Below are positions 9,979 to 13,469 of a DNA stretch of 32,796 bases, one piece after another. Position numbers and translations under genes: made by a program. Within the stretch, counting starts at the first letter, position 1; the number at the start of each line of letters is the position of its first letter. Origin of the DNA: Actinomycetota bacterium (GTDB taxonomy: Bacteria > Actinomycetota > Actinomycetes > S36-B12); the NCBI GenBank assembly GCA_041183645.1, contig JBEGLG010000113.1, positions 1 through 32,796 on the forward strand. Reading direction: 5' to 3'. Under the pieces are notes generated by a model, which saw only the letters and a program-made list of their open reading frames with translations, was not told where the DNA came from and searched no databases.

Positions 9979-11765
9979 GCCCGGTGAGAGAACTGTGGAA
10001 GGCCATGTCGGCGCAGCGCACCGAACTGGCGCTCGCGGCATTCGTCGGATTCCTGGCGTCGGCCTCGGCCATTGCACTACTCGGTACGTCGGCCTGGCTT
10101 ATCTCGCGCGCCGCGGAGATGCCGCCGGTGCTGACCTTGAGCGTTGCCGCGGTCATGGTGCGCGCGTTCGCTCTGGGGCGAGCAGTGTTCCGCTATCTCG
10201 AACGCCTACTGGGGCACGATGCGGCATTCCGAGGGCTCTCGCAGCTTCGTGTCAGCCTCTACCGAAGCCTCGAGGCGATCACGCCGAACGGACTCGCGCA
10301 ATTCACCCGCGGCGATCTCATCTCGCGGTTGGGTGCCGATGTCGACACCGCTGTCGACCTGCCGCTGCGCATCGTTCTGCCCTGGGCGCAAGCGATTCTC
10401 GTGTCGATCGGCACGGTGGCATTCCTCCTCTGGCTGTTGCCGACGGCCGGTGTCGTGATCGGCATCGTCGTGCTGCTTGCGCTGACCGTGATGCCCTGGC
10501 TGGTCGGTCGCACCGCCGCGCACGCCGAGGCTCGACTTGCGCCGGGCAAGGCCGCACTCGCGAATGCAGTGCTCGCCTCGCTCACTGCCTCCCCCGACCT
10601 GCTCGTGCTCGGCGCCGATCGGCCCGCGCTGGCAGCCGTGCATGCGCATGACGAGCGCGTGACCTCTCTCGGTCGACGTGAGTCGGTTGCCCTGGGACTG
10701 AGCGGAGGCACCGGCACGCTCTTCCAGGGGCTCGCCGTCGTGGCAGCACTCGTCATCACCATTCCCGCCGTGATCGACGGTCGACTGCCGGCGGTGATGC
10801 TCGCCGTCGCGGCACTTCTTCCGCTCGCACTCTTCGATGTGCTGCAGACCCTGCCGGGCTCCGCACTCGCCTTCCATCGACTTCGCGGGGCCGCGGCACG
10901 CCTGGCCGAGATACACGAGGCGCCGGCCGATGACTCCGCTCAGGCGACGGGTCGACCGGGCGAGTTCACCGGCCTTGTCGTCGACAACCTCCGCGCACGA
11001 TGGTCGGGCGCTGAGGGTGATGCGCTCGCGGGAGTCTCACTCAGCATCGCCCCAGGTGAGCGCATCGCGATCGTCGGACCGAGTGGCTCCGGGAAGTCGA
11101 CCCTCGCGACTGTCCTCATGGGATTCCTCAAGTACGACGGCAGCGCGGTCACGTGCGGCTCCGAGATTCGAGCCCTCGACGGCGACGACCTGCGCGAGCG
11201 AATCGGAATGATGGAGCAGAGCTCGCATATCTTCGACACCACCATTGCCGCGAACCTCCGGCTCGGTCGTCTCGATTCCACCGATGCCGAGGTGTGGGCG
11301 GCTCTCGAGGAAGCGCAACTGGCCGAGTGGGTGCGCGGTCTCCCGCTCGGCCTCGACACGGAGGTCGGCGCCTTCGGCACCCGACTCTCGGGCGGTCAGC
11401 AACAGCGGCTCGCCCTGGCACGCCTTCTGCTCGCGCAGCGCGAACTCGTCATCCTCGACGAGCCGACCGAGCACCTCGATGCCCAGACCGCGGAGCAACT
11501 CGATCGCACGCTGTTCGCGGCCACCGCCTCGCGCACAGCGATCCTCATCACTCATCGCCTGGTCGGTCTCGAGGCCGCTGACCGCATCTACGTACTCGAC
11601 GGCGGCCGAGTGATCGAGCACGGCACGCATGAGGCACTGATGAGTCGCGATGGCTGGTACGCCGCCGCCCGGCGTCGTCAGGATGAGCAGCGCAGCATGG
11701 CAGAGCTCATTGACGTGCTTCCCGTCGGAATCGGCGTGCCCGTGCCCCCGCTCGCGAGAGGATGA
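9975..11765 (+). CDS. cydC: Thiol-reductant ABC exporter subunit CydC
   Basis: ATGA start/stop overlap with cydD (9975-9978). Walker A GPSGSGKST, signature LSGGQQQRLALARLL, Walker B VILDEPTEHLD. Confidence 0.9.
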   Translation: MSPVRELWKAMSAQRTELALAAFVGFLASASAIALLGTSAWLISRAAEMPPVLTLSVAAVMVRAFALGRAVFRYLERLLGHDAAFRGLSQLRVSLYRSLEAITPNGLAQFTRGDLISRLGADVDTAVDLPLRIVLPWAQAILVSIGTVAFLLWLLPTAGVVIGIVVLLALTVMPWLVGRTAAHAEARLAPGKAALANAVLASLTASPDLLVLGADRPALAAVHAHDERVTSLGRRESVALGLSGGTGTLFQGLAVVAALVITIPAVIDGRLPAVMLAVAALLPLALFDVLQTLPGSALAFHRLRGAAARLAEIHEAPADDSAQATGRPGEFTGLVVDNLRARWSGAEGDALAGVSLSIAPGERIAIVGPSGSGKSTLATVLMGFLKYDGSAVTCGSEIRALDGDDLRERIGMMEQSSHIFDTTIAANLRLGRLDSTDAEVWAALEEAQLAEWVRGLPLGLDTEVGAFGTRLSGGQQQRLALARLLLAQRELVILDEPTEHLDAQTAEQLDRTLFAATASRTAILITHRLVGLEAADRIYVLDGGRVIEHGTHEALMSRDGWYAAARRRQDEQRSMAELIDVLPVGIGVPVPPLARG

Positions 11766-11768
11766 GGC

Positions 11769-13469
11769 ATGCGCGACGACGTCGATAGCGGGCTCTTCAG
11801 CGCTGTCGTGGCGGTTGCGGCAGGGCTCGAGCTCGGTGCCACCCTGCGACGAATTGTCCAGGCAGCGGCCGATCTCGTCGACGCCGAATACGGCGCACTA
11901 GGCGTACTCGGTCCGCAGGGCACGGTGTCGGAATTCGTGCACGTGGGCATTGATACCGAGACCGCTGCTCGAATCGGCCCGCTGCCGGCAGGCAAGGGAA
12001 TTCTCGGCCTACTGATCGAGCACCCGGCACCGATTCGCATCGAGGACCTCATGCAGCATCCGGCTGCCGCCGGCTTCCCGGCGGGGCATCCGGTGATGAA
12101 ATCCTTCCTCGGCGTTCCGGTGCGCGTGCGCGGTGAGGTATTCGGAAACCTGTACCTCACCCAGAAGCGCGATGGGCGTGGCTTCACCGTCGACGACGAG
12201 CGCACCGTCATGGCACTTGCCGCAGCCGCGGCAGTCGCGATCGAGAACGCTCGACTGTACGAGAGCTCCCGGCAGCGCGAGAGATGGCAGAACGCCATCA
12301 CCGAGATCGGCAACGCGGTGCTCAGCGGCGACGAGACAGGCGAGGTGCTCACTCTCGTCGCGCGCAATGCGCGCAGGCTGGCCGGCGCTGACTTTGCGAC
12401 AATCGCCCTGCCCGATGCGGAGGGCATCCTGCGAATCGAGATCACCGATGCCTACGACGATTCCGAGGCGGAATTCGAGCTCCCGCGGAGCCGTTGGTCG
12501 GTGCACGAGTCTCATCGCTCGCCCGAATTCGTTCGCGAGCTGCAGGCTCATGCCCGTTCATGGCTGGGCAGCGAGATCGCGACAAGCTCACGTGTGCATC
12601 GAGTCTTCACCGACGGCGAGAGCCTGAGTGATACCAACGTGCCGATTGCGCTGACTCCGGGCGAGATCCAGACCTTCAGCCACGTGGCACTTCTGCCGAT
12701 GCACTCGGGATCGCGCGTGCTCGGCGTGCTCAGCCTGCTGTGGGCCGGTGGTGCGCAGAGTGCCTCGGAGGCAACGATCGCGCTCGCGCAGACCTTCGCG
12801 GGCCAGGCGGCAGTGACCTTGACCCTGGCGGAGGCACGTGGCGAGCAGGAGCGCCTGGCCGTCTTCGAGGATCGCGATCGCATTGCCCGCGACCTGCACG
12901 ACCTGGTTATCCAGCGTCTCTTCGCCACCGGGATGCTGCTGCAAGGCACCATGCGCATCGAGGATGTGCCGGCTGCGGCGACCGAGCGACTCGACAAGGC
13001 GGTCGATGAGCTCGACGAGACCATTCGCGAGATTCGGCAGACGATCTTCGCCCTGCACGAGCCGGTCGAAGGTCCGGCAAGCGGCCTGCGAGGTCGAGTA
13101 CTTCGCGAGACTAAGCAGTCGGCGGCAGTACTCGGCTTCGAGCCGGCCGTGCGATTCATCGGTGCCGTCGATTCCTCTGTCTCGACCGAGAATGGCGAGC
13201 ACCTGATCGCCGCACTTCGCGAGGCGCTGATGAATGCGGCCAAGCATGCTCAGGCTGCCCGCGTCGACGTGCTCGTGCAGATCGAGCCCGCGTCGGTACT
13301 TCTCGTCGTCACCGACGATGGCATCGGCATTCCCGAGCAGGGCATGGGTCGTCGCTCCGGGGTCACGAACCTCATGGCACGGGCGGTCGAGTGCGGCGGC
13401 AGCTGCGAGCTCGAGAGGGTGAACGCAGAAGGGGGCACCCGCCTGGTGTGGCGAGTGCCCCTCGACTGA
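11769..13469 (+). CDS. devS: Soluble dual-GAF sensor histidine kinase, DosS/DevS/DosT-like (predicted heme-based gas/redox sensor)
   Basis: Aligns from memory along its length with M. tuberculosis DevS: [28 protein letters not shown] / [14 protein letters not shown] / [32 protein letters not shown]. His107 (codon 12087-12089) matches DevS His149, and the Tyr 22 residues later matches Tyr171. HisKA_3 H-box [19 protein letters not shown]; ATPase boxes MNAAKHA and DDGIGIP. ATG lies 3 nt after the cydC stop. Confidence 0.85.

Follow-up and report, generated by a model that had tools for sequence, protein, structure and literature searches.

Why does the gene of a DosT/DevS-type sensor kinase lie directly behind the cydABDC genes of cytochrome bd oxidase, and does the kinase take part in the control of that oxidase? 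The question is raised by a stretch of 32,796 nucleotides (nt) from an Actinomycetota bacterium of the GTDB lineage S36-B12 (GenBank assembly GCA_041183645.1, contig JBEGLG010000113.1, positions 1 to 32,796 of the forward strand), hereafter called the window, in which cydA, cydB, cydD, cydC and then the kinase gene follow one another on the plus strand, and the gene of a DevR-like response regulator converges on the kinase gene (Table 1). Our analysis gives good support to a new and conserved wiring, in which the DosT/DevS-DevR two-component system, itself well known, is tied to the cytochrome bd/CydDC locus. We consider it likely that the kinase is a cytoplasmic, haem-based sensor of the DosT subtype, that it is transcribed with cydDC and coupled to cydC, and that its regulator controls the cyd genes through a box upstream of cydA.

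The kinase, its regulator and the junction with cydC

The kinase has the soluble architecture of the Mycobacterium tuberculosis kinases DosT (Rv2027c) and DevS/DosS (Rv3132c), with two GAF stretches (GAF-A at residues 22-159, then GAF-B) followed by HisKA_3 (369-432) and HATPase_c (477-565) in Pfam searches, on an N-terminus that is ~40 residues shorter than that of DevS. Searches of the Protein Data Bank (PDB) matched residues 22-168 to the DosT GAF-A structure 2vzw (E 5.5e-54) and GAF-A to the DevS structure 2w3d (E 3.8e-48), both without gaps, with a score of 187 bits for DosT vs 168 bits for DevS; the C-terminus matches the ATP-binding domains of DevS and DosT (3zxo/3zxq) at ~1e-12. In GAF-A the kinase shares 62.6% of its residues with DosT and 57.8% with DevS, and these two domains are 73% identical to each other. 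His107 (CAT, 12087-12089) aligns with the proximal His of the haem pocket, H149 in DevS, and Tyr129 (TAC, 12153-12155) with the distal Tyr, Y171 in DevS; the motif GFPAGH...FGNLYLTQK is present. At the haem-channel position, Gly45 (codon 11901-11903) aligns with Gly85 of DosT and Glu87 of DevS, so that the channel residue is of the DosT type, and the structures of the DevS mutants E87G and E87A (2y8h and 2y79) are among the PDB matches. All 39 cyd-linked orthologues keep His107, Tyr129 and Gly45, and all keep the neighbouring Phe56 as well. The H-box His377 (RDLH377D; codon 12897-12899) falls within the HisKA_3 match and would be the equivalent of DevS H395. The sole hydrophobic 19-mer (residues 8-26) is not a membrane segment, because from residues 21-22 it aligns with the N-terminal segment of the soluble DosT and DevS GAF-A structures, and no transmembrane segment was found in the kinase beyond this first GAF helix. 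One orthologue (P0107) was already labelled "sensor histidine kinase DevS" in the JGI annotation. At the level of its sequence, the kinase is a DosT-subtype (O2-binding) member of the DosT/DevS family, for which haem binding and gas switching are predicted.

The regulator encoded opposite the kinase matches DevR (PDB 3c3w) over its full length (E 4.5e-82, 62.6% identity), with about twice the score of any other structure, the next best being VraR at 6e-41. Its Asp57 is the equivalent of DevR D54, and its recognition helix EKTVKNY (K182, K185, N186) is identical to that of DevR. By homology, a putative cognate NarL-type regulator of the DevR/DosR kind stands beside the kinase; its conservation among loci that share the gene order of the window is 81-95%.

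In the window, three letters, GGC, separate the TGA of cydC (11763-11765) from the kinase ATG at 11769. An upstream start is impossible because an in-frame stop precedes 11769 with no other start codon between them, and JGI gene calls on three other contigs with an identical protein give the same boundaries for cydC and the kinase. The identical kinase is found in the JGI samples 3300047290, 3300028948 and 3300021430. The AGAGGA string within the 3′ end of cydC is unchanged in the three closest relatives (L001-L003). A terminator scan found no terminator-like site between the two genes, and the RNA of the junction has no unusual structure (z = +1.5, a fold no better than that of shuffled sequences); the fold of the RNA downstream of the kinase is likewise no better than shuffles. 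Between positions 5000 and 15000 there were no Rfam matches, and a scan of the same interval for sigma-70 consensus promoters gave no match anywhere, this consensus being uninformative for actinobacterial promoters.

The strongest evidence on the junction is its spacing across 41 sequences (the window and 40 species-level loci, with kinase identity down to ~50%). Measured from the cydC stop, the homology-supported start of the kinase stands at -8 nt in 21 of these (ATGGCTGA), at -4, +3 and +4 nt in four each, at +7, +9 and +12 nt in two each, and at +28 and +45 nt in one each, and thus lies between -8 and +12 nt in 39/41. That this spacing is held while CydC diverges to ~42% identity is a signature of co-transcription and translational coupling, and both are strongly supported by this comparison of sequences. 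The sequence TGA GGC ATG places the cydC stop and the kinase start in one frame in the window (11763-11771) and in the three closest relatives, and a CydC-kinase read-through fusion was therefore considered; it was rejected because the frame relation is not conserved, most other relatives overlapping in a different frame.

These results bear out most of what the initial annotation had proposed for this part of the window. It had named a DosS/DosT-like kinase with an intact haem pocket, and both the family and the residues of the pocket are confirmed. It had placed the kinase ATG three nt behind the cydC TGA, with a Shine-Dalgarno sequence inside the 3′ end of cydC and no terminator between the genes, and each coordinate is correct; the tie to cydC that it saw in one genome recurs in the spacing of the relatives. 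Its choice of the adjacent regulator as the partner of the kinase agrees with the DevR homology, and the DosR box to which it referred is present upstream of cydA and, as described below, conserved.

A DevR-type box upstream of cydA and the proposed circuit

A target of DevR/DosR is expected to carry a palindromic box of the form GGGACnnnnGTCCC, and the box upstream of cydA, GGGACGAAGGTCCC, is the sole zero-mismatch match to it in the 32.8-kb window. Among 34 sequences that hold the 5′ end of cydA (the window and 33 loci), a box with at most one mismatch lies 97-143 nt 5′ of cydA in 32, at a position fixed within each sub-lineage, against a background rate of 0.033 boxes per 300 nt in the same loci. 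The palindrome is therefore both present upstream of cydA and conserved in relatives.

Together, these elements suggest a circuit. Low O2, or binding of NO or CO at the ferrous haem of GAF-A, would switch the kinase on, which would autophosphorylate at His377 and pass the phosphate to Asp57 of the convergent DevR-like regulator. The regulator would bind GGGACGAAGGTCCC upstream of cydA and so control cytochrome bd oxidase and the CydDC maturation system. As the kinase gene closes the controlled unit, induction would also raise the level of the sensor, forming a feedback loop that involves the kinase only. We infer haem binding, ligand specificity, phosphotransfer and occupancy of the box, as well as the direction of control and the degree of read-through past the hairpin described below.

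The direction of control is most likely activation, since the characterised targets of DevR/DosR are activated by it and bd oxidase serves at low oxygen, being induced by hypoxia in actinobacteria. It is unlikely that the box is instead a repression operator, or that the phosphorylated regulator turns cyd off, which would make the loop negative or homeostatic. The box as such is compatible with either sign, inspection by eye across the loci found no consistent or convincing -10/-35 pair relative to it, and it lies in a divergent intergenic region common to cydA and an acyltransferase gene. However, the behaviour of DevR/DosR at its other targets and the hypoxic induction of cytochrome bd both speak against repression, and a path from hypoxia through an active kinase to induction of the oxidase is the physiologically coherent direction.

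How much of this unit is read from the cydA promoter would depend on a GC-rich hairpin in the cydB-cydD spacer. Its end is 18 nt from the cydD start, in a region whose fold is more stable than expected (z = -2.76), and in 15-16 of the 17 loci with the gene order of the window a hairpin unrelated in sequence stands at this position. Those of the relatives end 17-46 nt before cydD and mostly lack a U-tract. Such a distance has space for a ribosome-binding site and not for a promoter, and cydDC and the kinase are therefore probably read through the hairpin. The hairpin is probably a partial terminator or attenuator, or an element of mRNA stability; it looks as if it sets the dosage of cydAB to that of cydDC-kinase, by our inference through lowering or differentially stabilising the distal message. 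In this genome the kinase is probably also transcribed from the cydA promoter by such read-through, and a single transcript from cydA to the kinase is plausible, probably with unequal dosage of its parts. The initial annotation had read cydA-B-D-C-kinase as one transcript; this is supported at the cydD-cydC and cydC-kinase junctions, which are coupled, but the conserved hairpin after cydB had been overlooked.

Conservation of the locus and alternative readings

A scan of relatives with one genome per species gave 75 loci, from which a synteny table was built with tblastn. Among relatives with at least ~50% kinase identity, two arrangements carry the kinase at cydC, in ~40 species-level genomes. 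In the type of the window (~18 loci), the order is cydA-cydB-cydD-cydC-kinase, usually followed by the convergent DevR-like regulator. In a sister type (~22 loci), cydD-cydC-kinase is convergent to cydB-cydA and the regulator is not nearby. The synteny of cydDC and the kinase persists to ~50% kinase identity and ~42% CydC identity, and the kinase overlaps cydC by 8 nt in 21 sister-lineage genomes despite the relocated cydAB. Because the kinase stays behind cydDC where cydAB is convergent, the conserved unit is cydDC-kinase and not cydABDC-kinase; and because in the sister lineage the box-bearing cydAB forms a unit apart from the kinase, feedback through the kinase would be possible only in the arrangement of the window. 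This qualifies the description, in the initial annotation, of the kinase as the fifth cistron of cydABDC, which fits the window-type loci and not the sister lineage, where the coupling is to cydDC only.

The arrangement is carried by uncultured actinomycetes, several of them labelled Candidatus Nanopelagicales, which are abundant in freshwater and soil metagenomes; at least 120 kinase homologues, all at 61% identity or more, are among the matches listed. For cultured actinobacteria, five cyd loci were compared through the plasmid database PLSDB (a Nonomuraea chromosome, Nocardia farcinica, Tsukamurella, Kocuria and a Streptomyces camelliae plasmid). None of the five has a kinase after cydC, and the arrangement is therefore lineage-specific. 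No box with up to two mismatches was found within 400 nt 5′ of cydA in the four of these loci that were scanned, all but the Streptomyces plasmid. A tblastn search of PLSDB with a chimeric query of CydC tail and kinase head returned no record with both halves joined, and the best kinase matches in Embleya and Nonomuraea are not cyd-linked. Some genomes hold two DevS-like kinases on different contigs (L041/L066, L040/L047, L039/L064 and L043/L071), which recalls the DosS/DosT pair; of the two copies in the L041/L066 genome, only one is cyd-linked.

Several findings count against the proposed circuit. Most transcripts could end at the strong hairpin after cydB, and a promoter may lie inside cydB or cydC. 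Haem binding is predicted from the sequence alone. In the sister lineage the kinase does not follow the box-bearing cydAB, and feedback is not a conserved feature; of the feedback module of kinase and oxidase that had been put forward for this locus, what holds is an arrangement in the window type that would allow it. Two loci, L013 and L059, carry the kinase-regulator pair without cyd genes. No box with at most one mismatch lies within 300 nt 5′ of cydD (0/38), and none lies within 300 nt 5′ of the regulator gene, either in the window or in relatives of the same order.

Some of these points would also fit a historical accident, in which the kinase merely came to lie next to cydC, has its own promoter inside that gene and serves a regulon that is not specific to cytochrome bd. 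In favour of this, the two loci named above keep the pair without cyd genes, distant DevS-like kinases (up to 46% identity; Pseudonocardiales, Nocardioides and others) stand beside a regulator and are never cyd-linked, and the five cultured cyd loci lack a kinase. Against this, the cydC stop and the kinase start overlap or nearly abut in 39/41 sequences across two locus arrangements, the DevR-type box is kept before cydA in both, and the DevR orthologue is next door. We regard an accident as quite improbable.

A different reading takes CydDC as the conserved partner, with the kinase made in stoichiometry with the transporter and either receiving haem from it or reporting the flux of haem or thiols. 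A role in binding or exporting haem and thiols has been suggested for CydDC, the sister-lineage kinase is still coupled to cydC by an 8-nt overlap in 21 genomes where cydAB has moved, and the CydC of this clade has an extra C-terminal tail of ~65 amino acids. Yet overlapping genes are inseparable without damage, so that the persistence of cydDC-kinase may mirror tolerated breakpoints, and DosT and DevS need no such partner; we give this reading little credence. The same low probability attaches to its extension, in which the kinase would be made one-for-one with CydC and docked on the CydC tail, and the regulator would tune cydAB to O2 and also to how much oxidase can be matured. Last, it is very improbable that GAF-A binds no haem and senses another ligand or a redox cue: at position 47 a Leu replaces the His89 of DevS and the Arg87 of DosT, and the general caveat of a predicted haem site applies, but the gap-free identity of 62.6% to the DosT domain and the invariance of the proximal His, the distal Tyr and Phe56 in cyd-linked orthologues argue for haem.

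Comparison with known systems and neighbouring features

The reading that we favour, a haem-based kinase transcribed with cydDC that acts on the cyd genes through its regulator and the cydA box, shares its parts with M. tuberculosis and differs in their wiring. The likeness to DosT and DevS extends from domain order to the pocket residues, and M. tuberculosis DevR/DosR (Rv3133c), to which the window regulator is 63% identical, has the same phospho-Asp, the same recognition helix and the same GGGACnnnnGTCCC core box. Unlike in M. tuberculosis, the kinase gene of the window is the last behind cydDC, the regulator gene is convergent, in another operon and without a box of its own, and the box-bearing target in the window is cydA. 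The devRS operon of M. tuberculosis is autoregulated, and a window-type regulator gene without a box differs from it; kinase and regulator on one box-bearing promoter were not found in the window. To our knowledge, cydABDC is not counted in the DosR regulon of M. tuberculosis.

Streptomyces coelicolor has a DevSR counterpart, OsdK/OsdR (SCO0203/0204), with a similar palindromic box (PMC5069765). Its cydA, cydB and cydCD are SCO3945-3947 (PMC6585502), and the next locus tag, SCO3948, is that of an orphan kinase (PMC9739842), the paralogue nearest to OsdK (PMC5069765). From this numbering of locus tags in the literature, a DevS-like kinase probably stands beside cydCD in S. coelicolor too, which would make SCO3948 a tractable genetic test case; we found no comment on the adjacency of SCO3947 and SCO3948 in the literature. 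The S. coelicolor cydA is outside the predicted direct targets of OsdR and appears in Table S5 only.

The cydABDC operons of Mycobacterium, Corynebacterium, Nocardia and Tsukamurella have the same one-strand order of cydA-cydB-cydD-cydC and the overlap of cydD and cydC. In Tsukamurella cydB and cydD overlap, whereas the window has the hairpin-bearing spacer between them. The logic of an oxygen or redox sensor that adjusts bd oxidase is also that of ArcBA and FNR in Escherichia coli, Rex in Streptomyces and Bacillus, and Crp in M. smegmatis (see PMC7739888 and PMC2883068). Those proteins are unrelated to the system of the window, and their signals are the quinone pool, an Fe-S cluster, NADH/NAD+ and cAMP rather than a haem-GAF domain. 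We know of no case among the ArcBA/FNR, Rex and Crp systems in which the sensor is a cistron of the cyd operon. The initial annotation had taken the operon architecture to be undescribed, and likewise neither a DevS-like kinase within a cyd operon nor a DevR box at cydA is described in the full-text literature that we searched, which covers little of the subscription literature.

Almost all study of DosRST concerns its role in switching M. tuberculosis to dormancy, and cytochrome bd is not counted there among its targets. In widespread uncultured actinobacteria of freshwater and soil, a sensor-regulator pair of this kind is built into the cytochrome bd locus: the kinase gene follows cydDC, the regulator gene adjoins it and the box precedes cydA. 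This suggests that control of the high-affinity oxidase is a primary job of the DosRST-type system in environmental actinobacteria, and possibly that oxidase control is older than dormancy control. The circuit offers a simple and testable model of how these actinobacteria handle oxic-anoxic transitions.

Table 1. Positions of the genes and sequence elements discussed, numbered from the first letter of the window
Feature	Position	Strand	Details
AT3/SGNH acyltransferase gene	3399-5561	-	divergent from cydA
DevR/DosR-type palindromic box GGGACGAAGGTCCC	5615-5628	.	84-97 nt 5′ of the cydA ATG
cydA, cytochrome bd oxidase subunit I	5712-7118	+	Pfam PF01654, E 2.3e-162
cydB, cytochrome bd oxidase subunit II	7140-8234	+	Pfam PF02322, E 9.9e-109
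GC-rich intercistronic hairpin	8250-8292	+	19 pairs, ~-33 kcal/mol, no U-tract
cydD	8311-9978	+	NCBIfam TIGR02857 CydD, 607 bits vs cut-off 435
cydC	9975-11765	+	NCBIfam TIGR02868 CydC, 540 bits vs cut-off 329
Shine-Dalgarno-like AGAGGA in the cydC 3′ end	11756-11761	+	7 nt before the kinase ATG; read directly
DosT/DevS-family sensor histidine kinase, 566 aa	11769-13469	+	Pfam domains and PDB matches
orf180, 180-aa secreted protein without family	13483-14025	-	signal peptide MKKSVLALAASAVLGLTAFAAVPAHA; JGI gene call
DevR/DosR-orthologous NarL-type response regulator	14034-14690	-	convergent to the kinase; PDB 3c3w

All four cyd products of the window belong to their families by Pfam or NCBIfam, with CydD and CydC above the curated cut-offs of equivalog models. 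The start of cydD is a GTG, whose N-terminus MRPLDPRL is kept in relatives (tblastn alignments begin at residue 1), and the end of cydD overlaps the start of cydC by 4 nt. Coverage of CydC by TIGR02868 stops at residue 529 of 596, which leaves a C-terminal tail of ~65 amino acids beyond the model; this tail (residues ~530-596, window 11565-11762, ...SRDGWYAAARRRQDEQRSMAELIDVLPVGIGVPVPPLARG) finishes right at the kinase start.

On the minus strand, a gene run of MDMPI, regulator and orf180 has gaps of 14 and 8 nt, and orf180, 8 nt downstream of the regulator gene, is probably in the same operon. Its product had no match in Pfam, NCBIfam or the PDB, and orf180 is confined to the closest relatives L001-L003 at 70-77% identity.

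The divergent intergenic region that holds the cydA box spans 5562-5711, with the box ~54 nt from the acyltransferase start, and the box could control the acyltransferase gene too in the closest relatives of the window. In the sister lineage (L016-L030 and others), a second conserved palindrome, ATACCCnnnnGGGTAT, lies ~25 nt 5′ of the DevR-type box upstream of cydA; we take it to resemble operators of the CsoR family. The same lineage has a P-type ATPase gene directly 5′ of cydD on the same strand, and recurrent one-mismatch "boxes" ~2.2 kb 5′ of cydD were rejected as operators, being conserved coding sequence of a P-type ATPase. In the window, GGGAACAATGTCCC at 21007-21020 has one mismatch to the DevR core, and an identical 14-mer occurs in relative L003 at 12857. 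The site lies between the divergent genes of an acyl-CoA dehydrogenase (minus strand, ~100 nt away) and a DUF6069 protein (ATG at 21022), and it may be a second site of the regulon.

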